A stretch of 64,000 nt of DNA from Takakia lepidozioides (GCA_030704615.1 CM060731.1:36642001-36706000), one strand, 5' to 3'; shown: positions 1-35,447, numbered from the stretch's first letter. Notes: generated from the sequence alone by a model not told the origin. A program made the numbers and translations.

Positions 1-40
1 CAAGAGATTACCCATAGCTTTCTGCGGCAACCATACGTTT

Positions 41-3000
41 ATGCTTTGTGCACTACAGGCATTCCTGCAGTTGTTACAGCCAAAGCAGTTCTGTGAGTCT
101 AAGATGAAGAGAGTGAGAGGAATGGAGGAAATCAGGGTGAAGAGCACCACAATTCTGCAGAAACAAACGATGGCTACCCCACAGGCGATAAAGATACTGA
201 AGGAGCTGAGATTGGAAGGATTGCAAAGCATGGATTGGACACTACACCATAGACAGTACATGTTACAATTTTTGCAGAACTTTGAGCCAAAGACAGGAAC
301 AACAACGGTGAAGGGAGTTGAATTAATGATTACTCCCCTATACCTCCAGCAATTGTTTCGATTGCCAGCAGGTCATGTGTATGTGGAGGAACACAGGGAA
401 AGACTGCAAATAGGGGATTTATTCCAAGAAGGGAGTTTCTTTAAAACTCAGGGTTATGCTTGTACCAAAGCTGTGTACCCAGGGTTAAAAGACATAGGCC
501 AAGTATTGAACGTTCTGATTGCCCTGAAACAGAACCAACAATATTTGAGCAGATCCTTCACAGAGGAAATCCTCAAAGGCTTGAAGGGACAAGAGGTACA
601 ATGGGCGGACATAATGTACAACGCACTGGTAGAGGAGATGAAAAGATTACAAGGTACTACCGCAAAATCTCCTATCATAGTGTCTGGCCCAATCATTGCT
701 CAAATAATCCTTAATTCTGGCATACTTAATGCACAAGAAAGGAAGGAAATGGGAGTGTTTGAGCCAGAAACAACTGCAATGGAAGAGCAAGGCTCTTCAC
801 ACAGTGAGGGTGGACTAGCAGCACAACCCGAGACTAAGAGGCAGAGAAGGGGAAAGACTGTAGTGGCGGATCCACTGGCTTCACGGATTCCGCATGATAA
901 TGTTTCCCAAGCTCATGACCAGGAAGGGGCACAGCAGCACAAAAAATGTTATTACTGGAAGCAGGACCTTCAGAGAGGGAGGAAGAAGTTACTTCTGCAT
1001 CACAACCAACACAGCCACTTGAACGACTTGTCACAAGGTCACAAGTTATCCATGCAGCTCAACCCGAAATAATTGATTTGGAAAGTGAAGGGATAGATAT
1101 TCCAACTACAGAACAGATAGTGGCAGAAATAGAGAAAGGGGACCTTCTCTATGAATATTCTGGTCTGGTCAAGGAGACAGAAATCCCAGAGGTGCAACAG
1201 TTGCCCAAGAGAAATCCTGAGGTACATATAATGCACACACCTGTGTCGGAGGTACCACAGGCGGAAGGCCATGACACTGTAGCACCGGTCATAAATGAAG
1301 TAGTTCAGGAAGAAAATCCGGTGGGACAATGGTCTGAATGGTTAGTGAGACATCATACTGTTGAAGATCAGGAGGAACAGCAGCAACCTCACCATGATGA
1401 CCCTCAACAGGCAATGCTGATGAGTTCCATAGGCAGGACACTTAATTTGTTGGGGACTTATGTCAAAACCCATGTTCCAATTACCCAATTGACAGCCTTG
1501 AAAGAAGAACTCAGGAAGGAGTTTGAGGCTCGACTTGCCACTGAGTGTGCAAACAAGGTCGATGAAGAGGTCACTCTCAAGATGAAGCAGGACTTGGCCA
1601 ATACAGAAATGGCTTTGCAATTGGCCAAGCAACAATTGATTGAGGCAGGCCTCGCGCAAGACCAGTTGCACGAAGCACATAAGCAACAGCTATACCAAAT
1701 GCAGGTGCAGCATGAAAGCAAGTTGCAAGAACTGAATGCACTACATACGGAGTTGCAGACAGTGCATAACAGGATGGCGATACAATGCGCTACATTTACA
1801 ACTATGCTTGACCAATCAACAAAAGAAATAAACAGTCAAGCGGAAAAATGTACGAAGGCAGAAGAAGAGAATGTGGAGCACATGAAGCTCATTGTCGATA
1901 TGAAGAATACAATCTGTCGCAATGAAGATACTTTCAAGCAATACAGGCAGATGGAAGCTGAGCAAGAGAAATACATCGTGGAGTTGCAACAAACCATCGT
2001 GGCCAATAGAAATGAAATCGCGGTCAGTAACAAGGCTTCGAAGGAAGCCAATAATCTACTTGCTGCCTATGCGCAATTGGTTGAGCCACAGGCGAAGCGC
2101 ATGGAGGCTTTACAACAGCAGTTGGAATTGTACAAGCTAAGAGAGGAGCAAACTCTCAGGGGAACCACAAGCAGCTTGGTGGATAACAGCCTTATGCAGG
2201 TCTGGTTAGCACAAGGGCCAGTAGAGGGCAAAAGCCCACGGAAGCTCACCCAAAGCGAGATGAATGAGCTCAGACTGCAGGTGCAGAACATTGCCACAAC
2301 TACTATAGACAATGTCTATAGTAGGATAGCAGAGTTACAAGAGGATGTAGACGGACTCCAGACTCAAGTGGAAGACCTCACTTCAAACATCGACCAAAGA
2401 GTCTATATCCCTCAGGAACAGCTAATGGCTTCTTATTTGCAAGCCAGAACTCTGGCTTTTCAGTCTTCACAGGAGGTGCAGGAGATGCCAATGGTACAGG
2501 AACCAGTACCACCACCACCACAACAGGTCAGTGTACCAGTAGCTGAACCTGTGGTTACTACAACCACACCACAGCCACCACAGCCGGAGGTATGGGGCAA
2601 TGCAGCTTTTAACCCACCTAAAACTCCAGCTGCCAGGGAGTACAGTAGGGCTATGATTATGCCCTTCAACCAAATTCCCATCATGTTGGATTTGGCTTGG
2701 AAAGAATTTAGTCCTCCGCAGTCATTCGCACATTACTACCAAATCATGCGTATTTGGCTGCCAGTGGCAACCAGGACTAAAGTTCTTCCAAACAATCGAC
2801 ATATTGAAGATCATCACTTTGCACAATACTGGCACGAGGCAGGTACCATGTTGAGGGAATTGGTTGCTTTCCAGGTTGTACATGGACTCATTTATACCAA
2901 GACCAAGGAGATAGCAAGTATTGTCATGGGGTGCGGGCTATACTACGCTGCTTGTTTTCTGATACGTTACCACATTGAGCAACAAAAGATGCAAGCACGC

Positions 3001-3654
3001 TTTCAAAGTTACTCCAGTGGAGATCATTGGGTATTACCTTCGGTGCCACCTCATATGTACCTATATGACCCAAAAGTTATGATACAGAAGGATTCTCAAA
3101 TTCGTTCATGGTTTCAAGCAGCCTGCAACAATTTGTCAACACAGAAATTCGGACTTGATGACATTTTCTATAAGGGACATATCGCATGGAAATACTTGCA
3201 CGCTGCACCAGTAATTGGTACCCCACTCATCTGGACAGACAAGGAGCTCAGTGTCTACACCAATTTTGCTGTTCAACGGTTACACCAGGTTGTAAAATGC
3301 AAACTTCCAGACATGGTAGGACAGCATTGTATGCCCCAGATGATTCCACAAAAAGTTCGAAAATTAAAACACCTGAGAGGCGATGAGGATTCTGATACAA
3401 CTGTTTCTTCACAGAATTCTTTTGACATGGGAGAAGACTATGCAATTCAGATGGAAGAGAAGAAACAAAGGGGATCTCCTATGCCGGAAAGATTACCTCG
3501 ATATCAGCCTCCAGAAGGCCTCACTTATCCAGGTAGTGATCAACCATCTCCGTCAACCAGAGACAGACCTCGGGCTCGTACACACAGCCCGCCACGAAAC
3601 TCTCAACGTCAACAAGGTGCTCACTCACAAAGGGTTGCTACTCAGAAACAGTAA
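41..3654 (+). CDS. Retrotransposon extra ORF (~1,200 aa, one frameshift near 920-1000): N-terminal plant-transposon-protein-like domain, long coiled coil, unknown C-terminal globular domain
   Basis: ORFs 41..1072 and 946..3654 overlap in adjacent frames, and the frame is open back to position 2. The segment LQFLQNFEP..TVKGVELMITPLYLQQLFRLP resembles Athila/Tat-type extra-ORF domains. A Q/E/K/L-rich heptad region follows. No gag/pol motifs. Confidence 0.6.
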
Positions 3655-3691
3655 ACCGTGAGGACACGGCTTTTTGAGGGGAAGGGGTAAA

Positions 3692-4715
3692 TGTTAGAGG
3701 ACTGTAGGGGACTTAGACACTTATACGGGATCTGTAGGGTACCCTTAATTTTTGCACAGACTGAGACAAACAGGAACCTTAGGGGTGACAGCAGCGCACT
3801 GTAGAGGGGGGTTACATAGCCCACACAGCCGACACAGCAGTCACAGCCCACACAGCCAACACAGCCCGTCACAGTCGTCACAGCCCACACAGCCCACACA
3901 GCCGACACAGCCGACACAGCCCGTCACAGTCGTCACAGCCCACACAGCCCACACAGCCGTCACAGCCCACACAGCCCGTCACAGTCGTCACAGCAGACAC
4001 AGCCCACACAGCCAGTCACAGCCCGGCACAGCCACACAGCCAGTCACAGCCCGACACAGCCAAACACAGCCAGTCACCGCTTGACACAGCTGTCACGATA
4101 ATAGGGAACGAAGAGTAGGACAGGGAACGACTGTGGGGAACAACACCTGTGAAGGGAACATGTTAATTCACATACGACGGTTAGAGAGGGAAACGGTTAG
4201 AACCGCGGATAGGAGGATAAAGGGAGAAACGGGGAATGAAGAAGGGATTATGATTCGGGGGAGGAGGATTTCGGAGTGAGACGGGAGCGGAAGTCGGTGA
4301 GCACGATGAAGGAGGAAAGAGGATTAGTAGATGCTTGTTATATGCAAAGCTGTAGGGATATTGTAGAGGAGAATAGAGACACAATGGCTTCGGCCTGATA
4401 CCTGATAAATCATAATCTGATACTTATACGATACAATCACACTGTGTAGAGAGATCTGAGTGAAGCTGTGGATTGAATGGAGGAGTGAAGGAAACCGATA
4501 AATTGATGAAGCAAACTGATACTTAATTATCAATGGTAAGGTAGCTAAGATGAATGCGGAAAAGGAAACAAATAGGAAACACCCCCATGATACACTAGCT
4601 GTAGGTCATGACTGATTGTTCTGCGCGGGCTGAGTACTTAGAGATTTCCAACTCTTCTATCTTGGAGTTTCTGCCTCGGATAGCGAAGGGATGGGTGAGT
4701 AAAAGCCGCGCGACA
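3692..4715 (+). repeat. 3' LTR of element A (~1.02 kb)
   Basis: Starts TGT right after the PPT and ends ACA. An internal TGTCACG at 4091 is a near-inverted match to the terminal CGCGACA, so 4091-4715 could alternatively be a separate solo LTR. Confidence 0.6.
3818..4090 (+). repeat. Degenerate 9-10 bp minisatellite (CACAGCCCA / CACAGCCGA / CACAGTCGT) inside the LTR
   Basis: Directly visible tandem CACAGC units. Confidence 0.95.
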
Positions 4716-5520
4716 GTACCCTGACTTGTTGCTTGTGTCTGCAGTTCGTGGATACCAACAAGCCTTGCCAGCAGACATTTCCTTGTTGAAGGCGCAGGAT
4801 TTGGAGCAGGTTGGCTCCATTGATCTGATAGAGGCAGGTTGGCCCTGCCAAGGGCATTCATCAGCCGGGCATGGCAATGGATTGCGAGACTCGAGGACGG
4901 GTCTGTTTTGGGAGATGGTGCGGGTTTTGCGCCACTTGCAGCTTCATCAAGCTGTATCTCCAGGTAACATCTTGGAGAATGTGCCACTGATGGGTGATTC
5001 TCGGGCCAGGGTGATGGCCAGTGTGCATCAAGTCCAGTCGTGGCTTGGGTCAGCAGTGTTGCTGGATGCAGCTGCAGTGGGGTCACGAGCTCATCGTCCA
5101 CGGCTTTGGTGGACTAACTTGATGCCACCCGCACTGCTCAAACGTGCATTTGATGGGGTGCAGTGGCCAGCACACCTAACCGTGGATGGCATTTTGGACA
5201 CAGGGAGGCAGTCTCAACGTGTGAGACATGATGACTGTTCGTCTTTGGCAGTGGTCAACAGGGTGGGTCAACCACGAGCAGCATTACCTACACTGCTCAG
5301 CTTCCCAGGATCCCATGCTTTTCGGGATGGTGGACTTGGCCTCCTGTGGGATGCTCAGTTGCAGCAGTTAGTGGAGCCTAATGCCGACGAGCGAGAGCGG
5401 GCTATGGGGTTTTCCACTGGGACCACGGTGGTGCCTTCTCTTTCTAAGGCATCACGTCGTCAGGTGTTGGGGCAAGCAATGGATCTCAATTGCTTGACCT
5501 GGATTATCAGCTTGGCTATG
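4716..5520 (+). pseudogene. C5-cytosine DNA methyltransferase domain (DNMT3/DRM-like motif spacing) within pol; N-terminal motif I removed by the element A insertion
   Basis: Motif IV AGWPCQGHS (catalytic Cys), VI ILENV, VIII AHRPRLWWTN, IX ERERAMGF, X RRQVLGQAMD. Same reading frame as the downstream RT. Confidence 0.9.
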
Positions 5521-5814
5521 GCTGAGCAACGTAGAGTGCGGAGTGCACTTCCCTTGACGGTCTCTCTGCCTACCAAGACGGTACAGGCAGCGAGTGGGGG
5601 CGAGCCGGTGAGGACCACGGGGTGTAGACATCCATGGCACACGTGGGAGGTGCTCGAGGTTCAGAGGGAGTTGGCAGCCAAGGCAGCTGTGATGGATGAG
5701 GTTGGGGATTCTTCTCGGGATGAGGAGGTTCTCAATGATGAGATGATGGGGCAGGATGAGGCCTTGTCATTGACTGAGCAGGAAGGGAGTACTGCTCAAG
5801 AGGTTGCAGCATAG

Positions 5815-6969
5815 CAACCACGGGACGCGTCCTCTACCTCTAAGCCCACTGGACTTAAGGTTGCAGTTACGGAGGACAATTGGGAGCCTGACATTGGACC
5901 CATTGTCACCGGAGGAGAGAGACGACGTATACGGTGGTTCCTGAGGGCTTACAGGAATTGCTTTGCCTTCAGTTTGAAGGACTTGGGAGCACTGAAGGGT
6001 CAAGAGATCCATATTGAGTTGGCCACTGACACGCCAATTTTTCGGAGACCCTATCGATACAGTGACATGGAGAGGTCTTTGATTCAGATGAGGACTCAAG
6101 ATCTCTGGGAGGCAGGTTTGGTGGAGCTCTCTGGTGGAGAGTATGCTTCAGCCACAGTGATGCCAGCCAAGAAGGATGTCTATGGCAATTGGACGGAGAG
6201 ACGTATGTGCGGTGATTACCGGCCTGTAAATCGTCAGACCAAGTCCGATAGGTATGCCATGCCAACACCATAGGAGATCTTTGATGCCATTGGGCATTCC
6301 AAGGTCTTTAGCACGTTGGATTTACGATCCGGATATCACCAGTTGCCGATCAAGGAGGCGGATAAGCAAAAGACGACATTTTGGGGGATCAATGAGCACG
6401 GGAAGGATTGCCTATACCAGTGGCGGTTCTTACCATTTGGGCTTAAAAACGCTCCCGCTGAGTTTCAAAGAGTCATGGACAGGATTCTAGCAGGGGTGGA
6501 GTTTGCTCGGTGCTACATAGATGACATCATCATCTTTAGTGCTACGGTGGAGGAGCATGAGAGACACCTTCAGGGGGTATTTGAGCGCTTGAGGACGCAC
6601 GGATTGAACTTACATCTGGGCAAGTGCAAGTTTTTCCACAACCAGATTGAGTATCTGGGTCACATGATATATCCTGGAGGATTGGGGGTACAACAGACTA
6701 AGGTAGAGTCCATTGCACAGGTTCTACGCCCCACGGATGTGAGCCGAGTTCGAGCTTTCATGGGGTTAGCAAACTATTACAGACGGTTTGTTAAGGGATT
6801 TAGTGCCATTTGCAAAGGCTCTAACCAAGCTGACCAAGGTGGACCAGGAGTGGCAGTGGGAAGATGAGCAAGAACAAGCTTTTCAAGAGCTCAAGGCGAG
6901 GTTGACCTCGGCGCCCATCTTGAGACGACCTATCAGGGGGCGTCTTTTTCAGCTGCATACAGATTGGAG
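5815..6969 (+). pseudogene. Gypsy reverse transcriptase and start of RNase H (TAG at 6271, frameshift near 6812)
   Basis: PIFRRPYR, RMCGDYRPVN, DLRSGYHQ, PFGLKNAPAEFQ, YIDDI, FMGLANYYRRF, FQLHTDW. Confidence 0.95.
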
Positions 6970-7209
6970 AGGTTAGCTATTTCATGAGCATGAGCGGCAT
7001 GAGCGGCATGAGCGGAGTAGTAAGACAATCGGTTTTCATGAGCAGAAGTACAAATTTCGAAAATAATAAATAATAAAAAATAGTAATTTAATGCAATGTG
7101 TCAGGAAAAACAAATATATTATTCGGCACCTTGAAGGGAAAATTGTAGTTTTGACAGTTGTGCTCATGATACTTCGTCTTCCGCTCATGCCAATTCCCAG
7201 CGACATGTG

Positions 7210-7545
7210 CAAATATGGCGCCGAATTTCGCGGTAATAGGGTCCGTAACCTGAAAAAACGGCGACGTATTTCGCGGTAATAGGTCTCTCTGGCGAAAAAT
7301 GGTGCCGAATTCCGCGGCTATAGGTCCCCTCATGACAGGTAATTCGGCGCCATTTTTCCAGTGCATGTTCGGATTTAGTCAGTTTTCGGCGCAAAATAGG
7401 GAAATTCGGCGCCATTTTTCCAGACACTATACCAGTGCATGTTGGGACTTAGCCAGTTTTCGGCCCAAAAAAAAGAAATTCAGCTCCATTTTTCCAGACA
7501 CGGTACCAGTGCATGTTGGGACTTAGCCAGTTTTCGGCCCAAAAA
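7210..7545. repeat. Subterminal repeats (GGCGCCGAATTTC, CCAGTGCATGTTGGGACTTAGCCAGTTTTCGGCCC)
   Basis: Visible repeats of about 70 bp sharing motifs with the 9.7-12.1 kb arrays. Confidence 0.8.
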
Positions 7546-7549
7546 AGAG

Positions 7550-9589
7550 AAACGGTGCTCCTCTCTGAAATCTGGCGCCACGAGCCTGGTTGTGTACTGC
7601 GAAAGGCTCTGCAGAAAATGGAACCCACAAGATCTCTCCTTGCCTTCCATGGGAACATTGGGGTCTTGCCCGTACACCTTTTGGATGGCAGCCCAATTTG
7701 CTTGTGCGTTGTCTGCCATGAAACCACGGAAATTGGGAGGGGGCAATCCCGCCTTGGCCATCTGTTCGTTTATTCCCTGCCAAAGAAGCATCTCCGATTG
7801 TGTGTCCTCTCCTTTCATCTCACAAATAGCAATTGTCATTAGCATCCTGCAGTGGGTGTCGTAGACATGTGCACCCATTGTCATCCACTGGTGATTTGTA
7901 ATTCGCTTGATATGGTCGAACATGACCCAACTGTTTGACAAGTCCCCACTCGTCATTCTGTCGACTAGTTCGACGCCGCTGCCAGGTCCACACGTGGACA
8001 TTTTGAATACGAAACAACGATCTGCCTCAGTCCCTTGTCCTGGAAACCTACTTCCATGAATGTAGTCATATCCACATCGTGCTTCACCTCCAGAATGGAG
8101 TGCATATCCGAGCCACGCCCAATTTTCTGTTTGCATGAGACAATGTGGTTTTGGACATTCGGTGAACATACGTGGGACACCGACTCCAGCAATGCCTCCA
8201 TTTCCTTCTCATCGAGAGGAACTCTATCGGAGCCGTCTTCCGACATAATTCTAGCCAATGCCATCTTATGGGCGGCTTGGAGCTGTATCTGTTTGGGTTT
8301 GGCACCCGGTTTCAACTTAACCTCCTCCAGAACGAGCTGCTCTGCCTCGTGGGCAGCCTCCCGCGAGTTCCCCTCGCCAATTTGTGACAATGGGAACCAA
8401 CGTGTATGCAAGCTCGGGTGAGGTCAGGGAAACGGTGCAACACATAGAACTGCTTGGCATTACAAACAGACATGCAGTGTGGTGGTTCTTTGCAATGCGC
8501 ACACTTAAATGTGGAGTTCGGAACCTTCTCATGAGCTCGAAATGGTTGATGAGCTGTGCCTGTCCAATCGGTCTCGTTCCTGTGACCTCTGGATTTAAAG
8601 TGGAAGCAAGTTGGGGAGAAACACCGCAACGCGCCCGCACAAACAACGTAGCGCACCCGCACACCATCGAGCATCTTCATGCTGGTGGTTTTGGTAACGC
8701 ACCAAGGATGACCGTCATGTTTTCTATCCATATCTGTCAACATTCCGGACGCCCTCGAGTAGTCCGCCCGAGGAGGGAACTCAAAGAAGATATTATCGTC
8801 GACGTCGGCGGGAAGGCATGTAACCGATTTAATTGCGAACTTGCTGTAGTCTAGCCCGGCTAGCTCCGACCGGTGTCCCTCCAGGTGAAGCCCTCGCATA
8901 ATTTCAAGAATAGATCGAACTGCGGTGCTCGTGCTGGGAATATGACTCCCTCCTCCACTGACGTCCATTGAGGACTTGCCTGATCTCCAGGACAACCTCG
9001 GAACTTCTATGACCTCGTCTGAGTCGGACAGGTTGTGAACAACCCGGTTCTCGCTCGTCTTCATGGATGGGTTCGGCTCTGGATTTACTTCGTTGCGGAC
9101 TTCTCTATTTGAGGTAGCCTCTCTCTGATTCGCGGATTGTTTCGTGGAAGGCGCCAGGATAGAAGGTGCATTTGGCGGGCAAATGAAGTCCCCAACAGCC
9201 CTGTATATGACGCTGTCCGATGGTGGAACTCGCCATTCCCTGCCATCGTCGAAATCATCGTGGAGCACAACAATACTCTCGACAACAAGGCCGTTTGAGT
9301 CCTTCCTTTCCTCCTCCAAAAAAACCGACCCCGGTTTCAGGTGGTATCGAACGCACAGATATTTCTCCATCACCCGGCAGATGTCCCCTCTGCACGGAAA
9401 TGAAGCTCTATGCTCGTGAGGAGGGCAGTACACTGTAGCGCTCGGGTTTTCCGCCATGGGAGATGTGCACACAAGACTGCCAGGATGGCGTGCGGGCAAG
9501 CTCCCTGGTAGAAGGGGGATGCAGCGATGGGAAGGAATGCGGTGCCGATTTGTCCGAGCGACGAAGCCTGATCCAAATAAAAAATCCAC
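7550..9589 (-). pseudogene. MULE-type DDE transposase with N-terminal GCM/WRKY-like zinc finger; two frameshifts, C-terminus deleted
   Basis: Joined ORFs 8312..9589, 7965..8411 and 7480..8169. Zinc-finger segment DGHPW..RYVVCAGALRCFSPTC...CAHC..C..HVGSHCH. Catalytic-like WVMFDH and FMADNAQANW, plus the MULE CxxH motif CGFH. The third acidic residue is missing. Confidence 0.75.
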
Positions 9590-9719
9590 AGTCAGAGTGT
9601 TAATGAACCTTGTCTCCGGAATGCAGCCCCTGGTCTTTGCGCAATAACTGCCAACGGTATGCAGTCAGAAAGTGGGGGGCCGTCCGGATGATGTCGGCTG
9701 AAGGGTAGAAGCCGGCACC

Positions 9720-10760
9720 GTGCCGTCACATTACTACCCCCGAATGGAAATTCGGCACCCAATATCCAACAGGGGCCGCACGGATGAAGTCGTCTGGGGC
9801 AGAGATGCCGGCACCTGTCCGACAGAGAAGATCCCTCGGATGGAAATTCAGCGCCGAATTTCCATTCGGATCCCCCCAAATGAAGTTCTATCGGGGGGTC
9901 ACGCCGAAAACTGGCCGACATAAAAACCTCCGCGGATGGAAAAACGGCGCCGAATTTCCATCCGAGGCCTTTTCGGATGCAGTCGGCTCGGGGGAAAGGC
10001 CGCCATCTGGCCCTCACATTACAACCCCCGGACGGAAATTCGGCACCGAATATACAACAGGGGAAGCCCGGATGAAGTCGCCTCGGGCGCAGAGGCCGGC
10101 GCGTGTGCGACAGAGAATATCCCCTGGATGGAGATTCGGTGCCGAATTTACATCCGGGCCCCCCCAAAGGAAGTCGTGTCGGGGGGTCAGACCGAAAACT
10201 GGCCGCAATAAAAACATCCCCAGATGGAAAAACGGCGCCGAATTTCCATCCGGGGCGGTTCGGATGCAGTCGGGGAGGGGGGAGAGGCCGTCACATTTCA
10301 ACCCCCGGACGGAAATTCGGCACCGAATATCCAACAGGGGACGCCCGGATGACGTCGCCTCGGACGTAGAGGTCGGCACGTGTTCGACAGAGAGCATCCC
10401 CTGGATGGAGATTCGGCGCCGAATTTCCATCCGGGCCCCCCCAAAGGAAGTCGTGTCGAGGGGTCAGGCCGAAAACTGGCCGACATAAAAACCTCCCCAG
10501 ATGGAAAAACGGCGCCGAATTTCCATCCGGGGCCGTTCCAATGCAGTCGGGGAGGGGGGAGAGGTCGGCACCTGGCCATCATATTTCAAACCCCGGACGG
10601 AAATTCGGCACCGAATATCCAACAGAGCGGCGGAGAGGCCGGCACCTCTCCGACAGAGACCATCCCCCGGATGGAAATTCGGCGCCGAATTTCCATCGGG
10701 GCCCCCTTAAAGAAAGTCGCAGAAACCTCCCAGAATGGAAAAACGGTGCCGAATTTCCGT
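9720..10760. repeat. GC-rich ~280-bp tandem repeat (about 3.5 copies) with palindromic GGAAATTCGGCGCCGAATTTCC cores
   Basis: CCGACATAAAAACCTCC-like anchors near 9915, 10203 and 10480. A perfect 28-bp palindrome lies at 10670-10697. Confidence 0.9.
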
Positions 10761-10809
10761 CCGAGGCTGTTCCGATTTGCCTCTAGCAGTGAAGGATTCC
10801 AAGAAAAAT

Positions 10810-10835
10810 CCGAAACTGGAAAAATGGCGCCGACC

Positions 10836-10875
<40 letters not shown>

Positions 10876-11209
10876 CATTTTTCCAGTTCGGGGATGAAAA
10901 CGGCTAAGTCCCAGATCTGACTGGCACCCAAAATCGGAAATTCGGCGCCATTTTTCCAGTTCTGGGCCCAGTCAGATCTGGGACTTAGCCATTTTCGGCC
11001 CCAAACTGGAAAAATGGCGCGGAAAAAAAAAGAAAAAGAAAAAAGAAAAAAGAAAAAAACGCCATTTTTCCAGTTCGGGGCCGAAAACGGCTAAGTCCCA
11101 GATCTGACTGGCACCCAAAATCGGAAATTCGGCGCCGTTTTTCCAGTTCTGCGCCCAGTCAGATCTGGGACTTAGCCATTTTCGGCCCCGAACTGGAAAA
11201 ATGGCGCCG

Positions 11210-11240
<31 letters not shown>

Positions 11241-11862
11241 GCCATTTCTCCTGTTTGGGGCCGAAAACGGCTAAGTCCCAGATCTGACTGGCACCCAAAA
11301 TCGGAAATTCGGCGCCATTTTTCCAGTTTTGGGCCGAGTCAGATCTGGGACTTAGCCATTTTCGGCCCCGAACTGGAAAAATGGAGCCGAAAAAGAAAAA
11401 AAGAAAAAAAGAAAAAAAAAAACGCCATTTTTCTTGTTCGGGGCCGAAAACGGCTAAGTCCCAGATCTGACTGGCACCCAAAATCGGAAATTCGGCGCCA
11501 TTTTTCCAGTTCGGGGCCCAGTCAGATCTGGGACTGAGCCATTTTCGGCCCCGAAATGGAAAAATGGCGCCATTTTTCCAGTTCAGGGCCCCGAAAATGG
11601 CTAAGTCCCTACGATGGCTGGAACCGCAACTGGAAATTCGGCACCATTTTTCCTGTTCCGCGCCCTATCAGATCTGGGACTTAGCCATTTTCGGCCCCGA
11701 ACTGAAAAAATGGTGCCATTTTTCCAGTTCGGGGCCGAAAATGGCTAAGTCCCTAGGGTGGCGGGCACCAAAATCGGAAATTTGGCGCCATTTTTCCAGT
11801 TCCGGGCCCAGTCAGATCTGGGACTTAGCCATTTTCGGCCCCGAACTGGAAAAATGGCACCG

Positions 11863-11904
<42 letters not shown>

Positions 11905-12127
11905 GTCTTTTTTTCAGTTCGGGGCCGAAAATGGCTAAGTCCCAGATCTGACTGGCACCAAAATCGGAAATTTGGCGCCATTTTCCAGTTCCGGGCCTAG
12001 TCAGATATGGGACTTAGCCATTTTTAGCCCCAAAATGGAAAAATGGCGCCATTTTTCCAGTTCAGGGCCCCAAAAATGGCTAAGTCCGTAGGGTGGCTGG
12101 AACCGCAACCGGAAATTCGGCGCCATT
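10810..12127. repeat. ~180-bp tandem repeat with poly(A) tracts and internal inverted arms
   Basis: CGGCTAAGTCCCAGATCTGACTGGCACCC recurs at about 10901, 11088, 11268 and 11451 (period 180-187). Confidence 0.92.
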
Positions 12128-13784
12128 GGGTTGAGTCGCAATCCATGCACGAGCCAGTAGGATGACACTGGAGCTCGGTGGCATGGTGAGATAGACGAGG
12201 AGATGGTGCCCGGATGACATGCATCTGCATTTCTGTGTATCTTGGCAGTGGGAGGCCAGGTTGGACCTGCAACAGGGATGATTGTAGATCAAAGTGTTTG
12301 AGGACCCTGAGGCCAGCAATGAGCAAGGTGGCGCCAAAGATATACATGAGGATTCAGTTGTTTTGGACTACCTCCGCACTGGAGACACTGCAGCCACTGT
12401 GACTGTCAAGGAGAGGGATCCGATCCTATAACGAGCCAAGAAGTTCAAGTGGGAGGGGACACACCTGCTCCGAGTGTGGGAGGATGGTCGAGTGAGGATT
12501 GTGCCTCACCCAACACAGCGGGCACGATTAGTGCGGCATGCCCACGAGGAGTTGGGGCATTTTGGGGTGCGACGCACCCATAGCCTACTGCAGGGGCAGT
12601 ATTGGTGGCGTGGTATGCACACAGAGGTGCAACAATTTGTGGCTAGGTGCATGGTGTGTGACAGGGTGCGTGCTTCATTCAACGCCCCTACTCCACAATT
12701 GCACCCTCTTCCGATCATGGGATTGGGCTACAGGTGGAGTCTTGACTTCGCAGGGCCGTTGCCACTGACCATGCGTCACAACAAGTACGTGTTGGTGATG
12801 GTGGAGCACTTCTCCAAGTGGATTGAGTTGGTTCCATTGCCTGATAAGGCTAGTGAGGGAGCTGCGTATGTATTCTTGGATTGTGTGCTTAGCCAATTCG
12901 GTGCTCCAGCTGAGGTACTCACGGACCAAGGGAAAGAGTTCTTGGGGGAGTTTCAGGCTTTGTGTGACAAGGCCTTGATAGACCACCGCACCACTTCTCG
13001 GGATCATCCTGAGGCCGATGGCTTGGCAGAGAGAGTTGTTCAGACAGTAAAGAGGGGTTTGCGCAAGTATGGCTTGCAGAAGGGACACCTAGGAGATTGG
13101 GACCTTCAGTTACCCTGGTTAGCCATGGGCTACAGGTTCAGCAAGCAAGCATCACTTGCCTCCTTCTCACCATACTTTCTTCTCTTTGGCTGAGAGCCGG
13201 ATTTACCTGCATCCATTCGCAGAGAAGCTGCTGCAGTTCTTAACCTTGACGATCCGGACGTGTGGGCACGTGCATGTGAGCAGCGTGCAGAGTTGTTCAA
13301 GAAAGTCATGCCCATGGCTTTCGAAAACCTTGCCATCGCACAACACCGTGATACGCTGAGGTATGCTACCATACGTGGTGGGGGCTATCGTCCTGGGGTT
13401 CGGAGATTCAACCCTGGTCACTATGTTTACCTGCAGCAGACTGCTCCTACGACCTTGGATGTGACTGCAGGACGTGTTATTTTGAGGGTTCGAGAGGTCT
13501 TGCCCTCAGGCGTCTTGGTCTTGGAGGGTCGGGATGGCATAACTTGGAAGAACCATGTGCGTAATTGTGCACCATGTCACCTTCCGAATGTCGATGGCAG
13601 GATTGACCCAAACTTGGCAGTGGTATCTGCAGGTTTGAGATGCATGTTGTGTGGGTCTGCTAGAGGGGCAGCCACCATGCTGGTGTGTGATCGATGCTCT
13701 AGAGGTTGGCATTTGGGATGCTTGACACCACCTCTTGAGATGGTTCCGAATGGGGATTGATTATGTCCACATTGCATTGGATAG
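12128..13784 (+). pseudogene. End of RNase H, integrase (HHCC + DDE core) and C-terminal PHD finger; several premature stops
   Basis: HAHEELGHFG...CMVC; SLDFAGP, LTDQGKEF, DGLAERV; PHD CMLC..MLVCDRC..GWHLGCLTPPL..VPNGD*LCPHC (13641-13775). Confidence 0.92.
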
Positions 13785-14044
13785 TGGGAGTGGATACAAC
13801 CATGGAAGGCTAACAAGAAATGCAAGGCCAAGCTACTAGGAGACCTTGAACACACGAGATCTTGGCTCAAGTTCACAGATTGCAAGACGGCGACTAATGA
13901 TGGGGCTACTCTTGTACCCGGCCTCTTGGTCTATAGAGTTTGAGTACAATAGGGACAGTGATAGAGGACTCAGTACGGCTGTGGCTATTACATCTTGTAG
14001 CTATCTGGAGGTAGAGGGACCTATCCACCAGCTAGGGGGGCGAT

Positions 14045-14573
14045 TGTGGTAGACTACTTTATTGTGCATATATGTGTGGTGTGGTTTGGACAACGATGTA
14101 GTTGTGTAGCGATATGTATGCGCACGACAGCTGTCAAGTTAAATAAACACAGTGTGAAACTAACTAGAATAAAACTAGTTATTTGTATTTAACACTTGGA
14201 TTTAATTCAAGTGTTAAGTCAGGTGTCAAGTTTGAGCTTGACACCTGAACTATCTTATCTTCACGAGAGCGTCAGTCGCGCAGCTCATCTCTCTCGAGTT
14301 GAGCCTGCGCGACCGAGCTCCTTCATGCTTTAGAATCTGAGTGTGCTTATGTAGGGGTATAGGTTGTTGTGGGGTGGAGTCCCCATAGCTTGGGGTGCCC
14401 CTTGCTCGACTTCTGTTTTAAAGAGTGATGTTGATGGATTCATGTTGTTTTCTTGTGTGAACAGTGTGTTTCTAGTTTTTCTTATCATTGTGGCAGACTA
14501 CTTTATTGTGCATATATGTGTGGTGTGGTTTGGACAGCGATGTAGTTGTGTAGCGATATGTATGCGCACGACA
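14045..14573 (+). repeat. 3' LTR of element B (529 bp) bounded by 85-bp direct repeats
   Basis: 14045-14129 and 14489-14573 differ at only 2 positions. Each begins TGTGG and ends GCACGACA. Confidence 0.85.
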
Positions 14574-15590: not shown

Positions 15591-15894
15591 ATGCACGCGC
15601 ATTGCAATGCGCACAAATGTGACGTGATTGGCTAAGAGTAAGTGTCGAAGTAGCGTTGAAGCGGAGTAGCAATATCATATGTTAGTGTACACGGCCCCTA
15701 GTTATCATTCCTGGCGTGACGTGGCGCTGACATGTCGGCCGTCACGTCACGTCGAATCCAGACGTTTACCCATGTAATTTTTTTTACATTTGACTTTTAC
15801 GATTTACTTTTACCCTTTGTAATGACATGGCAACCACGGTGTAAAACAGAAGTGGCCAATTATTAATATTAAATTTTTTTAAATAAAAAATGCG

Positions 15895-16384
15895 TCCGCC
15901 TATATTGGCGGTCGCTAATTTTTTATTTTTTAAATGAAGCGACCGCCCATATTGGCGGGCGTTTGTATTTTATATATTTAAATAAATGACCGCCTATATT
16001 GGCGGTCGGTTGAAGTTTATTATGTTTTAAATGAAGCGACTGCCCAGATTGGCGGTCGCTCACATTTTTATTATATATATTTTTATTATTTTTTAATCTA
16101 TTTTATATAAATACAGCAACCGCCATGTGGCGATCGCTTATGTTTTTTAAAAAAAAATTTAGCGACCGTCATTTAGCAGCGGTTGCTTATTTTTATTTTA
16201 TCCTTAAATAAAGCGAGCGCCGTTAGGCGGTCGCTTCTTTAATAAATTTTTGAAAAATGCAGCGACCGTCATGTGGCGGCCGTCGCTATTTTTGTTAATA
16301 AACAATACAACGACTGCTATTTGGCGGCGGTCGCTTACTTAATATATTTCTTAAAATGAAGCGACCGCCATTTAGCGGCGGTCA
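15895..16384. repeat. Array of AGCGACCGCC/GGCGGTCGCT inverted pairs in AT-rich spacers
   Basis: More than 10 visible copies, many as short hairpins (e.g. GCGACCGCCATTTAGCGGCGGTC). Confidence 0.9.
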
Positions 16385-16595
16385 CTTATTTTTATTTTGA
16401 ATCCTGTACGACAATAACAAAAATGAGAGAGTCACATTAGCCCATGTAGTACTTCGGTTCATAGACAAGCCATTCAGTTGGCCTGAGTCGAAAGATATAT
16501 ATAAGACGGAGTAGACCATAGTCTCGTAGATATGAGATTTGTGGCGGTACAATGGTTCTTTTATCAAGACATAACTCAATTTTGATCGTGCATGT

Positions 16596-18190
16596 AATAA
16601 ATAAAGTCTCATTGTAAATACTACATTGCATATGTACGACCCTGACACCTGTTATCGCAACATAAATAGTTTGTATATTGTCTCACTGTTTATATTTGTA
16701 ATGTTCTAACGTGGCTGATAGGGTTATGAGAAAACGATGTATTAGTTCCGTACGAGTTAAACAACTAACGTCCCACATCTCATTCGGATATGCGACACTA
16801 CCATGTGAAGCATGAGTCTATAAGTAACATGTGCACATGCGACCTCCGAAGTCCGAACGTTCGATACTAGGTCCAGGAAATGTTTTCTGGAACGTCCCGA
16901 GGTCGCATGTACACCTGTTACTTATTGACTCATGCCTCACATGGTAGTGTCGCGCATGAGAATGAGATATGGAACGTAAGTTGTCTAACTCATACGGAAC
17001 CAATACATTGTTTTTTCATAACCTTGTTAGAAACGTTGGAACATTGGAACATACAAACAATGACACAGTACACGGCCGGTTTTGTTGAAATGACATCTAT
17101 GAAGTTCGAGCATATACAATTTATTATTTACAACGGAACTTTATTTACTCAGGGGACCCGTACTGCTGCAGGAGTGCAACTGATGGTGCGAATTCTCTAT
17201 TGATTAGAGCTGTCACAACCAATGTCAACAATCATATTTACGGTAAGGTGTTTCATGCTCTTGTTGTTCCTCTAGCTGAATTTTGTAGTACTCTTTTTGT
17301 TATTCTCGTGCCAACAACATCAGGTCCTCTGATACTGTCATGTTCAAACAAACGTATCAGCCACCCCGGCCAGCTTGCAGGCTGCAGCCACGGCCCACCA
17401 TAAATTGAATGAATTGGAGATTTTGTGCTCAGTTCCTGGTTTCATGTTTGTGGTGGCTGATATAGAATTCGGAATATGACAGTCCCAGTGGACCTGATGT
17501 TGTTGGCATGGGAATAGCAAAACGATTTCTAAATAAATCAGCTACATGAACATCGGCAGTATGAAACACCTTGCAATACATATGATTCTTGATATTGTTT
17601 GCACGAATTATTTGTATTTGTGCCTTCAAGTGGCGAACATTTCCGCCATGGTGTGGAAGAGGTGCATTGGCCACATTAAACGGTTGATGTGATACCATTT
17701 CACAAATGTATCACATCGCATTTGTGAAAATGTATCACATGAACCATTCCATGTGGCCTACGGCAGTCTTCGATGGGTACGAGATCAATATGGCCTACGA
17801 GATCAGCTTCCACCAACAAACATGTGATCATTTCAAAAGCGTTTGAAGCGACGATGGGCAAGGTTCTTCATTTAAATGTTCAACATGCTGAGATTTTTTG
17901 TAATGTCTCTTGCTTCGTAATGAGATGCTTCTCCAACTCTTATTTTTCCATTGTTAATATTCTCCATCTGGAACATATCCACACATGCGTATATAAATAC
18001 TTAAAAAACCAAATGACCATCAAAACTGGAAGCTGTGGATGAGGCTTATAAAAGTGGAGATGGTCATTTGCTTATTTAAGGATTTCTGCACACATGTGTG
18101 GATCTGTTCTAGGTGGAGAACATCGACATATTGGATAAGTGGACATGGAGAAGCACCGCATTACGAAACATGGGATACTACAAAAAGAGC
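16596..18190. repeat. Series of four long imperfect inverted repeats (foldbacks)
   Basis: 16596-17149 (axis 16872; inner arms 51/55 identical), 17213-17600, 17669-17758, 17895-18190. Confidence 0.85.
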
Positions 18191-22442: not shown

Positions 22443-22794
22443 TAAGACGTAACTCTAAACCCTTCACCGGAAATGAGTCTGAGTAGGAGTCAGATTAGTT
22501 CCTAAAAGGTAATTTTGTAGAATGAAAGGATCCTGGAAGCTAGAGGAGGGCCTATGGGAGCATTCTGCAACGACCTCACAGAAATCGCAGCAAAAAATAC
22601 CCCCCCCCACCCAGCCAATGACCTCCTTCTCTACGTGACTACGTGTCGTGGAATAATGAAATGTCACGCACACAGAAGTTGTGTGGAGAGGAAGTGGGGG
22701 GAGAATGAGCCTCCCTTGGCTTATATGCCCCCCCCCCCCCCCTCCCCCTTCCTTGAGCCACGCGGAAGGCAAACCTTCTAGAAGTGATCGCCAG

Positions 22795-23665
22795 AACTGG
22801 CGGTCGCTTCATTTTCCGAAAATAAAATAAATAAGTGACCACCAGCATTTACAGTGACATTAAAAATTAAAGCGACCACCAGTAATGGCAGTCGCTCCAT
22901 TTCCCAAAAAATAAAAATAAAAACGATTGCAAGTAATGGCGGTCGCTGCATTTCCAAACAAATTGAAATTAAATCGTCATTTATAAAACTAAAAAATAAT
23001 TACAGCGACCGCTAATAATGGTTGCTCCATTTCCAACAAAATTGAAATTTAAGCGACCGCCACTACTGGCAGTCGCTGCATTTACAAAAAAAACAATTGC
23101 GGCAACCGCCATTACTGGCGGTCGCTCCATTTTCCTCCAAAAAACAAAAAAACGACCGCCAGTAATGGCGGTCGCTGCATTTATAAAAAATATATTCCCC
23201 CCCCCCCCCGCCTCATTCCTCGCTCCACGCACAGGCAGACCTCGTAGAAGTGACCGCCACCTTGGCGGTCGCTCCATTTAAAAAACAAAAAAACACGACC
23301 GCCTCTAATGGCGGTCGCTCTATTTCGCGAAAAAAAAAAAACGACCGCCAGTAATGGAAATGAGGGGAGAATGACGCGGAGCTTATATGCAAACCCCCCC
23401 CCCCCCCCCCCCCCCCACGTGCAAGGCACACCTCGTAGAAGCGACCGCCACCTTGGCGGTCGCTCCATTTACAAAATCCCAAAAAACAACCGCAAAAAAT
23501 GGCGGTCGATCCATTTTTTAAAATTAAAAATGACGGTCGCTCCATTTACATAAAATATATTACGAGCAATTTAAGAAAAAACAAAAGACGACCGCTATTA
23601 CATCGTGTTCGCTGCATTTACAAAGAATAAAAAACAAAAACGACCGCCAGTGATGCCGGTCGCTG
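22795..23665. repeat. Second AGCGACCGCC motif array with poly(C)/poly(A) tracts
   Basis: Same motif as 15895-16384, e.g. GCGACCGCCACCTTGGCGGTCGC. Confidence 0.9.
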
Positions 23666-24822
23666 CATTAAAATAAAATGAATGCAGAGTAGGAAGCATT
23701 GGTACAATTGTTCTTCATTACACAAGCAAATCACCGAACACAAACATGAGCAAGTGCCGGTGCCTTTGGCCGACATTTTGGGTGGTATACACATGAGCAA
23801 CATATTTTATTTCCCAACACATACACAACAACAATACAAATACTCATAGTGACAATGATCACACTGATATTACTTCACTACAGAAAATGTAAACATGTCT
23901 ACTAAAATGTGCTGATGCATGCTTAGAGCTATTTTGCTTCAATTTCTTCTACTGCTTTGACGGCGGGACGAAGAAGATCATAATTTTGATGCTCCGATGG
24001 GCTGAAAATCCGAGTCACCCTCGACTTCACAACCATTGTCATGATCAGTGCTGGAATCGTCCTCCCTATCCAACCTCCCATGTCGAGGCATTTGAATCTG
24101 CAAGCGACCTCAAACCATATTTAGTTCTCTCTGAGGTCAACTCCTACTCCGGTCTCGAATACCATCCACAGTATCTGGCTTGTTTGTGGGCCGATCGTCT
24201 ACAAAAGGTTGGATTGTTCTCTGTCGTTTATGGGTTTGGGACGCAATCGAAAGTGCTCTCGAAGGAGGTAGCGGATGGGGGTCTACCCGAGATGGACCGG
24301 CATTAGATGGTCCGACATGTGAGGAACCATGGGCCTGCTGCGCAACACGTTGGTTAAGGTGAAATTGTAGTGGTAGGTTGTCATCATCCGAGGCTTCAAC
24401 TTTCGTCCGGTCCAATGTAGCAGAATGATGTATGCGTGTGGAAAACAGATCAACTCTGTTGCTCCTTAATGCCTGTTGTGTTGATGGGGAGCTGAATCGG
24501 TTTTGGCATTGTGGTGGAGCTGGTCATATCGGTGAGACATGTTCCCGTCCCGTCGACTGTACAATGGGTTCGGCACCATCATTTGTATGAACATGATTGC
24601 GTTAACAGAGGATGACACAATTGCAGCTTCACCTTCATCTACGATACGTACTTCCTCAAGAAGGTCATCAAAGGTCGGCTGGATATAAGCATCCTCCTCT
24701 GTGAACGTAAACGGATCATACGCATTTTTGAGAGCATCATCGGATCCATCTTCACTATTGGAGGCAGATGACTCCCTCTGAGATGATTCCCTTTGAGACT
24801 CAATATCGTCACTCATCGAATT

Positions 24823-34328: not shown

Positions 34329-35447
34329 GTAGCACATAATACTTATTGAATATTAGAAGAACATATATATTATTTATCTTCAGTTATAGGCTTTGGATGC
34401 AGATAAATTCCTTGTCGTACCCATCATTTGAACTGGACAAACATCTCAAACCTGGCAAAAAATACTTTTTTTCGTAAGGCGATTACGCACTTACATAAAA
34501 TGTAACCATCCTAATTTGAGTGTTGTTTCTCAGCCTTCATGGCTTCTATGTAAGGTTATTTTTCCTTACTTTTATTAATAAAAATGTCCAGGGCCACTGT
34601 CCCCTGGTCTCTTTAAAAAAATAAAAAATAAATGTTTGAGGGTCGGCCGCCGGCCGCCGAATAACTTAGTGTTACATATTCACGTGATGACATTTCTTTT
34701 GTGGTAGGGCAAGTTTTGATTTTTCGGCTACCTATCCGATATTGACAAAATAATCCACATCATGACCTTGATTGGATATATATTTTTAACCTTTGATTGG
34801 ATTCGTGTTGTTGACTAAAGCATGGTTTTCCATGAAATAGGTTTGTAACACATGGTAAAATTAATATAAATGACGGTGGGGGGCCCGGGTCAAGGTGGGG
34901 TGGTACAAATAAGACAGGCAGGACAGGCCTTGTTCCTCAAGTGGGTGCAAGAGCTTAGCTCCATCTCTCACTTCTGGGCCAGCTCCTGCACAGCTGCTAC
35001 CACGGAAAGTTCTCTCTTTCGTGGATTTTGAGCCTTTTGGAAAGAATCTCTTTGTTGAAATCGATCCTCTTTGAAGTCTCGCTGCAAATTTGCGAATCGT
35101 TAGTAAATCAAGGTGAGAAGCTGTCGGAGAACAGTGCATAGTTGTCTCTTGAAGTTCAAAGTGTTTTTTGTAACTGTGTTCAAGTTCATAAGGTATCAAC
35201 TTGCTCCGACAAAGATTTGTTATGAAGCATTTCGCGAGATTTCAGTTGCATACTTTGATCATCATCACCAGAGACCTTCGGTATTGCACAGTACCTCTAG
35301 AAAGAGCATTGTTGATGTATATGATCACGAGTGAATGAAACTGGGTCTACAAAACATTATGTTATATGCTAGTAACAGTCTGATGAAGAATTGGTTCTGA
35401 CAGTTGTGCTATTTTGTGGGGGTCACGCAGATTCCAAGGTTGCAGCA

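Follow-up and report, generated by a model that had tools for sequence, protein, structure and literature searches.

A DNMT3-like methyltransferase ahead of a conserved, probably leaky stop codon in gypsy-type retrotransposons of mosses and liverworts

A gypsy-type element with a methyltransferase domain in a moss

Positions 4716–14573 of the window (the whole 64,000-nucleotide stretch of Takakia lepidozioides DNA analyzed here) hold a decayed copy of a gypsy-type retrotransposon in moss DNA, in which a DNMT3-like C5 DNA methyltransferase (DNMT) lies upstream of RT-RNase H-integrase-PHD. The DNMT belongs to the element itself and is maintained by selection in a gypsy-type family of mosses and liverworts, and comparison of relatives indicates that it closes the Gag-protease ORF at a conserved in-frame stop. 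The host was identified as a land plant, and specifically a moss, from an FPA-like gene at 49258–54869 that groups in the moss clade (support 100/99); the original prediction had named a land-plant genome. Bacterial origin or contamination was ruled out by the moss genes in the flanks and by the DNMT3-like character of the enzyme.

Pfam analysis of the element confirmed the predicted DNA_methylase domain (PF00145, E 7e-12, 45.8 bits at a cut-off of 22) and identified RVT_1 (E 2e-30), Integrase_H2C2, rve and PHD matches. On the plus strand, the 3' part of ORF1 (4716..5811; Pfam, translation and relatives) comprises the portion of the DNMT3-like domain that begins ahead of motif IV and reaches motif X (about 4716–5530, by translation), followed by some 95 codons of C-terminal tail. 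ORF2 starts with RT and the first RNase H residues (5815..6969; Pfam and translation) and resumes with the end of RNase H, the integrase (H2C2 and core) and a C-terminal PHD finger (12127..13784, plus strand; Pfam), a segment with several stops and one frameshift. RT, RNase H and integrase in the window, together with gag, CCHC and protease upstream in relatives, give the canonical Ty3/gypsy order gag-protease-RT-RNase H-integrase; in relatives, CCHC, protease and DNMT lie within one ORF.

The window copy is dead and heavily damaged. The LTR of another retrotransposon cuts it at 4715/4716, so that gag, protease and DNMT motif I lie outside the window. This 3' LTR (3692..4715, plus strand) belongs to a different, nested LTR retrotransposon and not to the DNMT element; loose ends of the primer-binding-site type occur behind 4715 in all four sequencing runs, and its left end was placed at 3692 from a purine tract and TG. 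A 5157-bp insert of another repeated element (6970..12126, minus strand) takes the place of about 324 nt of RNase H, and one record (record 28) joins 6969 to 12127 via 324 other letters. The insert contains decayed minus-strand ORFs (7483–9664) and repeat arrays; neither its ORFs nor those upstream gave a Pfam match above cut-off. Frameshifts are present near 6809 and near 12250–12300, and stops, besides that at 5812, at 6271, about 12158, about 12215, 12429, 13191 and 13758. The LTR cut, the insert, two frameshifts and several stops contradict the earlier description of few lesions; the intact relatives that it anticipated do exist, as elements with unbroken ORFs.

The methyltransferase is DNMT3-like

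A single-frame translation of 4699–7000, used to read motifs and stops, gave motifs IV (GWPCQ), VI (ENV), VIII (HRPRLWW), IX (ERERAMGF) and X (LGQAM) and then RT in the same frame, as first reported. In relatives, motifs I, IV (PC), VI (ENV), VIII, IX and X follow in linear order, and since this order is unpermuted a DRM-type enzyme was excluded. The best PDB sequence match is DNMT3A (E 4e-11), followed by DRM (1e-6) and M.HaeIII (5e-5), and a structure prediction (pLDDT 91.9) returned DNMT3A as the top Foldseek match (E 1e-19); the predicted fold is DNMT3-like. The catalytic PC, ENV and SAM-binding motif I are retained across 35–70% identity. Pfam found neither an ADD nor a PWWP domain, nor any comparable targeting domain, adjoining the DNMT.

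Sequence comparison indicates that the DNMT is under purifying selection: comparing the window with its nearest subfamily gives a pN of 0.20–0.28 at a saturated pS of 0.69–0.76 (synonymous sites are saturated between the window and relatives generally, with pS 0.69–0.81). Among close copies, dN/dS is 0.50–0.77 for DNMT versus 0.31–0.69 for RT, values that we read as decay after insertion with a slightly weaker constraint on DNMT. CpG o/e is 0.46 in DNMT versus 0.38 in the host FPA gene, the depletion in DNMT not being the stronger and hence uninformative. In the ESM Atlas, one DNMT cluster of Streptophyta ties in score with phage clusters, which is equally uninformative. The sole match in viral contigs was a phage-type methylase unrelated to the element (L081, 35%), with nothing in a further search. 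A quick DNMT tree (SH-aLRT support only, with neither host DNMT3 nor DRM as outgroup and so uninformative on origin) separates the two liverwort genera, a placement that may reflect paralogy or transfer.

Family range and architectures

The search for relatives gave 69 longer homologs, the best in Calypogeia (71%), Marchantia (59–71%) and Sphagnum, and 148 matching stretches in metagenome contigs, of which 80 were retained. Two of the retrieved sequences, L082 and P0232, are catalogued as bacterial yet bear retrotransposon sequence. The DNMT-bearing relatives in Marchantia, Calypogeia and Sphagnum rule out a one-off capture, and a nearby host gene, already rejected in the original prediction, is ruled out by the integration of DNMT in the element family; consistent with this, DNMT and RT stretches have about equal coverage in host sequencing runs (by summed contig depth, a rough measure). 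Read depth also indicates a high copy number of the family in the host. In Marchantia polymorpha, Gag-protease-DNMT ORFs without breaks are present under hypothetical-gene annotations; Mp_4g09160 (P0003) is an unbroken Marchantia ORF.

Other arrangements occur: DNMT lies between RNase H and integrase in 12 of 42 long homologous proteins, and more distant relatives (P0032, P0034, P0042 and P0044) have DNMT and RT in one ORF. DNMT is thus not dependent on Gag-level dosage for its retention, since distant relatives use other architectures; in all three it sits within a protease-cleavable polyprotein. Loci were retrieved via DNMT, and RT copies without it are therefore uncountable from the locus set. 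Three RT matches without an upstream DNMT (L026, L054, L058) are neighbors from other families, 43–54% identical, and in L063–L068 the RT lies 3.0–3.6 kb behind DNMT.

A conserved stop codon separates DNMT from RT

The original prediction placed DNMT inside pol and regarded two TAGs, at 5812 and 6271, as the only breaks in their shared frame. Both were found, with no other stop before RT ends, and comparison of the linkers identifies the first as a conserved family feature and not a lesion. It reads TAG-CAA-CCA (5812..5820, plus strand), matching the plant readthrough consensus stop-CARYYA (PMC5397192, PMC3159437). Of 60 distinct linkers between DNMT and RT, 46 have a stop followed by CAR-YY, versus 9.7% of shuffles (motif anywhere in 330 nt). 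These 46 contexts are not independent, most coming from one subfamily; a 47th match (L028) was dropped, being situated in RT. The context is common to four lineages with 36–66% DNMT identity to the window. Exact CARYYA is found in seven of the 46 (the window, L082 and five others) and CAR-YY with another last base in the other 39. The commonest, a large Sphagnum-like subfamily, has CAA-CCC after the stop and then an in-frame ATG 6 nt past it. The motif is missing from 14 of the 60 linkers (deleted, decayed or of other subfamilies), and two (L044, L061) have a sense codon at the site. Linker length varies from 268 to 331 nt with the frame conserved.

The clearest case is L082, in which TAG-CAA-TCA is the sole break between ORF1 and a 1047-codon ORF2. 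With the stop conserved across linkers and in L082, DNMT would therefore close the Gag-protease ORF. Consistent with such a product, 27 of 42 long homologs end 241–374 residues past motif IV without RT (326 in the window). Where gene models of Marchantia and Sphagnum fuse DNMT with RT, the linkers measure 121–186 residues versus 224–245 in the DNA frames (38–124 shorter), as expected from predicted introns skipping the stop. The integral nature of DNMT thus stands family-wide; its location in pol, and the unbroken gag-PR-DNMT-RT-RH-INT-PHD frame sought in relatives, are unsupported because the clade keeps a single stop between DNMT and RT.

Readthrough is likely the route to Pol. As a lead only, an extended RNA stem is predicted 3' of the stop (5825..5928, plus strand; folding z-scores), with z of −2.6 in the window, −4.0 to −5.0 in L082 and mostly weak values in decayed copies; it is conspicuous only in L082 and L016, the window stem being equalled by other stretches.

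Split repeats at the element ends

The classification as a Ty3/gypsy LTR element was borne out by the domains but not by the ends: the family is gypsy by domains and non-canonical by its ends. Instead of a standard LTR, the 3' end of the window copy shows B-A-B split repeats (all plus strand). Repeat B1 (14043..14129) lies behind a G-rich tract and ends CGACA; a GC spacer and repeat A2, starting TGTCA (14130..14486), were assigned in the window from A1/A2 pairs in relatives (L003, L050, L054 and L058); and repeat B2 (14487..14573), 98% identical to B1, forms the element's 3' end, past which read depth drops to unique-sequence level. The partner of A2, A1, would mark the 5' end of the element, outside the window. 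A separate small TRIM at 14043–14573 was rejected, A2 being partnered at the 5' end in relatives. An A-ORF-B-A-B arrangement is present in L050, L054 and L058; none of the three has a canonical flanking direct LTR pair with a primer-binding site, and inspection by eye found no TGG-type primer-binding site behind A1 in them. Both independent complete insertions (L050; L054 = L058) are flanked by 4-bp target duplications. The ends are TG...CA in L054/L058, and L050 begins TA.

Comparison with known systems

DNMT-bearing gypsy elements were described in 2018 in one charophyte alga, Klebsormidium nitens (de Mendoza et al. 2018, PMC5890265), and KnitGypsy-Dnmt3, the Klebsormidium precedent already cited in the original prediction, is the nearest known case. 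It shares with the moss family gypsy domains, DIRS-like A-ORF-B-A-B repeats and a Dnmt3-like domain that lacks introns, is unpermuted and evolves under purifying selection (PMC5890265). It differs in host (a charophyte, as against a moss with liverwort relatives) and in that, according to its authors, DNMT, RT and RNase H are encoded in one ORF, whereas a stop sets DNMT apart from the other two in the moss family, which we therefore place beside the KnitGypsy-Dnmt3 type and not inside it. The moss element has a C-terminal PHD finger; the word PHD is absent from the main text of PMC5890265. A shared capture with the Klebsormidium elements is likely; no Klebsormidium-named sequence occurs in the 69 homologs or among the matches listed (120 of 236).

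In Symbiodinium, SymbioDIRS-Dnmt3 and SymbioLINE-Dnmt are likewise retrotransposons bearing a C5 methyltransferase, and the former has split direct repeats of DIRS type and enzymes with demonstrated de novo CG methylation (PMC5890265); both differ in using tyrosine recombinase or LINE machinery without a DDE integrase and represent an independent capture. EpiLTRs of Cymbomonas and Euglena (bioRxiv 10.64898/2026.05.21.726589) also combine an LTR element, a DNMT and a chromatin-reader domain, but their DNMT is sister to DNMT4 and accompanied by DAM and a chromodomain, in place of the DNMT3-like enzyme and PHD finger of the moss element. Bryophyte host DNMT3 (Yaari et al. 2019, PMC6453930) falls in the same class of enzyme, judged by top matches in sequence and fold to animal DNMT3; the host genes have several exons and an additional plant-specific domain (PMC12344493), while the element DNMT is intron-less mobile cargo.

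The TMV replicase/plant eRF1-1, SIRE1 and MuLV readthrough systems resemble the moss family in having an in-frame UAG/UAA, CAR-YY and a predicted stem ~10–13 nt downstream (PMC5397192, PMC3159437, PMC2194720). The putative readthrough site of the moss family differs in following protease and DNMT instead of gag and in the CAA-CCC of its commonest subfamily.

The kind of element is thus already known; its land-plant range and the probably leaky stop are absent from the literature searched (most subscription journals lie outside it), in which we found nothing on land-plant copies or on a DNMT-RT stop. An opinion paper (PMC6338049) calls transposon-borne methylases absent from land plants "such as tracheophytes", and the main text of PMC6317226 contains no occurrence of "methyltransferase". 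Two later papers say only "streptophytes", and their trees might include land-plant sequences.

Proposed mechanism and alternatives

We lean, by a modest degree, toward a bryophyte gypsy-type family with A-ORF-B-A-B ends whose ORF1 encodes a Gag-protease-DNMT3-like methyltransferase and closes at a conserved, likely leaky stop, with Pol beyond it; the DNMT, which would be made at Gag level, likely methylates new cDNA before integration. Occasional, low-rate readthrough would yield RT-RNase H-integrase-PHD, leaving methyltransferase output at Gag level, far above RT. The element protease would then release DNMT for packaging together with Gag, which we regard as fairly probable. By analogy with SymbioDIRS-Dnmt3, there is good reason to expect DNMT to be catalytically active on DNA, probably at CG. 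The chances seem evenly balanced that cDNA is the target, so that a new insertion would resemble old, methylated host DNA on arrival. It is about an even bet, too, that the internal B|GC|A junction templates both ends and that the DDE integrase inserts the product, the PHD finger steering it to marked chromatin. More tentatively, we can picture an old streptophyte lineage, unbroken in some hosts, in which each particle would carry many DNMTs and few RT-integrase molecules, insert pre-methylated cDNA and rebuild its ends from an internal CA-GC-TG junction, not from two LTRs.

The same anatomy and readthrough could serve a DNMT whose substrate is chromosomal DNA, reached in trans or once the element has integrated, and which silences the element's own copies or rival elements, so limiting copy number and sparing host fitness. 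This option was raised in PMC5890265; Gag-level dosage would leave excess enzyme outside particles, and the host DNMT3 of Physcomitrium performs de novo and CHH methylation (PMC10952607, citing Yaari 2019). Confinement of DNMT to a cleavable polyprotein in every architecture, the lack of an ADD, PWWP or similar Pfam domain beside it and the high copy number in the host make such a target unlikely. Alternatively, the stop may be conserved while Pol is made by splicing, reinitiation or an internal promoter, DNMT and RT never forming one polyprotein. The ATG of the Sphagnum-like subfamily would suit reinitiation, and the in-frame stop context of Candida Tca2 gag-pol gave no readthrough in yeast (PMC2194720); we consider these routes distinctly unlikely, as the ATG is missing from the window, L082 and L076, all of which retain the frame and CAR-YY, and a frame kept over linkers of variable length is a need of readthrough alone.

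The Klebsormidium enzyme showed no methylation when expressed in yeast, a result its authors deem inconclusive, and an RNA activity has been suggested for SymbioLINE-Dnmt (both PMC5890265). Along with the position of DNMT at the end of a Gag-like ORF, these observations would fit a fold retained for RNA methylation or for nucleic-acid binding in the particle; retention of the catalytic and SAM-binding motifs, a predicted fold nearest to DNMT3A, a DNA enzyme, and CG methylation by the convergent SymbioDIRS-Dnmt3 enzymes render that improbable. One unbroken polyprotein with DNMT inside pol and TAG 5812 as mere damage, although true of P0032, P0034, P0042 and P0044 and, per its authors (peer-review file), of Klebsormidium, is scarcely credible here, with the same stop and context in four lineages, including L082 with its single break, and ORF1 products terminating at the site.

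If a Gag-level DNMT does methylate cDNA, then moss and liverwort genomes, that of Marchantia among them, would carry a mobile source of de novo methylation able to sidestep host targeting. The role of the retrotransposon DNMT was left open by the 2018 paper (PMC5890265), and the leaky stop offers a clue, in that the enzyme would reach the level of a structural protein. As unbroken ORFs occur in Marchantia polymorpha, a laboratory model for which methylomes and gene editing are available, this role is testable in a plant. DNMT-bearing gypsy elements are common in mosses and liverworts; LTR finders probably miss their split ends, and their ORFs can raise the number of DNMT genes counted in bryophyte genomes.

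Domain anatomy and enzyme type

The DNMT-bearing element at 4716-14573 of the window is a real feature. Translation from 4699 yielded a single frame that passes through DNMT motifs IV, VI, VIII, IX and X to a TAG at 5812 and the start of RT, and then through a TAG at 6271 into the RT core, bearing out the original prediction that these motifs share one frame with RT. The proposed Pfam check gave a DNA_methylase match (PF00145, E 7e-12) that exceeds the cut-off; RVT_1, two integrase domains and a PHD finger were also matched in the element, and no match to gag, protease or DNMT motif I was found anywhere in the window. Based on the unpermuted motif order, DNMT3A as the top PDB match by sequence, and a domain model from the related metagenome locus L003 (pLDDT 91.9) that has DNMT3A/B/C in all structural matches listed, the methyltransferase domain is DNMT3-like.

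A recurrent stop codon between DNMT and RT

The TAG at 5812, originally taken as a lesion, belongs instead to the element's design. Comparison of 60 distinct DNMT-RT linkers (76 before removal of near-duplicates) revealed a stop followed by CAR-YY in 47, or 46 once L028, which lies in RT after a deletion, was dropped, compared with 9.7% of shuffles. Most belong to one large subfamily (TAG/TAA-CAA-CCC), and the motif is present in four lineages, the others being that of the window (TAG-CAA-CCA), a group at 36-45% DNMT identity (TAA-CAA-TCA/TTA), and L082 (51% DNMT identity), in which ORF1 of about 1346 codons and ORF2 of 1047 codons are in frame with TAG-CAA-TCA as the sole break. Among 42 homologs of at least 1100 residues, 27 end 241-374 residues past motif IV without RT (326 in the window), 12 carry the DNMT after RNase H, two continue from DNMT into RT, and one, a spliced model, terminates in integrase. 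Gene models that fuse DNMT and RT lack part of the linker; those from Marchantia are shorter across it, as though predicted introns bypass the stop. A further subfamily (L063-L068, L078) has an early stop in the DNMT frame and RT 3.0-3.6 kb downstream.

For the window, L082 and Sphagnum-like copies, a stem is predicted that begins about 10-13 nt 3′ of the stop and pairs with the initial codons of RT. It differs in sequence in L082, is strong only there (z -5.0, the overlapping window being the lowest among 39 control windows), and serves as a lead.

Family, selection and element ends

A protein search identified 69 longer homologs of the window DNMT, the named ones from Calypogeia, Marchantia and Sphagnum, and a profile search added 236 shorter matches, with the same three as the only named plants among the 120 listed. 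Metagenome contigs gave 148 DNMT matches, 80 of them retained, and the nearest copies cluster with a Sphagnum protein in a quick DNMT tree. Complete relatives span about 9.2 kb and are ordered gag-CCHC-protease-DNMT-RT-RNase H-integrase(-PHD). Comparison of the window with 41 distinct relatives shows saturation at synonymous sites (pS 0.69-0.81), whereas pN is 0.20-0.38 in the DNMT, mostly 0.14-0.24 in RT and mostly 0.11-0.16 in integrase; selection has thus maintained the DNMT; dN/dS between close copies is 0.50-0.77, like that of dead insertions.

Several Marchantia models (Mp_4g09160, Mp_8g17980, Mp_6g11220, MARPO_0091s0058 and others) are retrotransposon ORFs annotated as host genes. L082:1-9285 is a family element, unbroken save for TAG-CAA-TCA; its contig, whose ends overlap, was placed in a cyanobacterial MAG, and the protein P0232 likewise carries a bacterial annotation; both filings probably reflect eukaryotic contamination of MAGs.

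At the 3′ side of the coding part, the window has two 87-nt repeats flanking 357 nt, and complete relatives repeat the middle piece at the 5′ end, giving A-ORF-B-A-B in L050, L054 and L058 (A and B, terminal repeat pieces), the arrangement given for KnitGypsy-Dnmt3 of Klebsormidium nitens in a passage of PMC5890265. A starts with TGTCA and B finishes with GACA; the internal junction shared by the window, L003 and L082 is CA-GC-TG, and 4-bp target duplications flank both independent complete insertions.

Proposed working

From this anatomy, the stop, the repeats, selection and the predicted fold we infer a working scheme that we hold, as a whole, to be somewhat the better bet. Translation would mostly terminate after Gag-protease-DNMT, a minority of ribosomes continuing past the stop into RT-RNase H-integrase-PHD, and the protease would release the domains. 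The particle would contain DNMT in amounts matching Gag, and this enzyme would methylate the cDNA, such that a new copy enters the genome pre-marked; the internal B/A junction would act as template for the ends, and integrase would insert the product, steered by its PHD finger. That the DNMT instead acts on chromosomal DNA is unlikely though worth considering. Production of Pol by another route seems improbable. Stop-CARYYA is the plant readthrough consensus in passages of PMC5397192, PMC2194720 and PMC3159437; points against readthrough are that exact CARYYA occurs in only 7 of the 46 stop contexts, that one subfamily has an in-frame ATG after the stop, and that distant relatives lack such a stop. 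A non-DNA role for the DNMT is slightly more doubtful still. The unbroken polyprotein originally envisaged, which distant relatives without such a stop would fit, is very hard to reconcile with the in-frame L082, broken by the stop alone.

Comparison with known elements

De Mendoza et al. (2018) described DNMT-bearing gypsy elements in Klebsormidium, with DNMT and RT in the same ORF according to the authors, and an enzyme that was negative in yeast in a test they call inconclusive; a table in that paper lists 9 DNMT genes for Physcomitrella and 10 for Selaginella, and Marchantia is unmentioned in its main text (PMC5890265). In a passage of PMC6338049, land plants "such as tracheophytes" are said to lack DNMT-bearing transposons, and passages of two later papers say "streptophytes", referring back to the earlier report. 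Term searches of PMC6453930, PMC10952607, PMC6317226, PMC11982613, PMC12513842 and bioRxiv 10.1101/827881 returned no passage on DNMT-bearing elements. We take the working of the present family to be the same as that of KnitGypsy-Dnmt3; the differences lie in the host range and in where the DNMT sits relative to a conserved, probably leaky stop.

Twelve homologous proteins (P0040, P0047, P0049, P0051-P0053, P0056, P0061-P0063, P0207 and P0226) have RT-RNase H-DNMT-integrase-PHD in one ORF, an order based on Pfam for P0052 and not met in the literature passages on DNMT-bearing elements. Their DNMTs form their own clade (support 99, quick tree), and the same DNMT appears to have been relocated within the element.

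Damage, host and other repeats

The window copy is dead, and far more damaged than the few lesions originally noted; its frame is shifted twice and interrupted by six or more additional stops. Past 4715, contigs in four of four sequencing runs continue into primer-binding-site-like sequence, and 3692-4715 is therefore the LTR of another element, inserted into the DNMT. Window 2-4715 is the 3′ part of this high-copy nested LTR element; its frame is open from base 2, and a coiled-coil-like 911-codon ORF (919-3654, no Pfam match) is followed by the roughly 1-kb LTR, which contains 9-nt repeats. One contig links 6969 to 12127 via 324 other nucleotides; residues 1006-1114 of a homolog from Marchantia, which make up most of RNase H, have no counterpart in the window copy, and a 5157-bp insert occupies their place. 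This high-copy insert (6970-12126) holds arrays of 74-, 96- and 190-nt repeats, many inverted pairs, and decayed, Cys/His-rich minus-strand ORFs that have no Pfam match and presumably resemble MULE transposases. The host holds the family in abundance, and summed depth, a rough measure that gives no copy number, is similar over its DNMT and RT stretches and greatly exceeds that of the unique flank.

The host is a moss, because the FPA-like RRM-SPOC host gene at 49258-54869, nearest to Sphagnum (62%) and Physcomitrium (57-59%), nests in the moss clade with support 100/99, outside the Sphagnum and Physcomitrium groups (one-gene tree, 19 rows). We take 35376-37358 (PHT1-like phosphate transporter) and 44504-45220 (D-cysteine desulfhydrase-like exon) to be host genes as well. 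Short palindromic repeat arrays with a period of about 50 nt and two long hairpins, MITE-like, lie at 15870-16400, 16700-17601 and 22770-23680.
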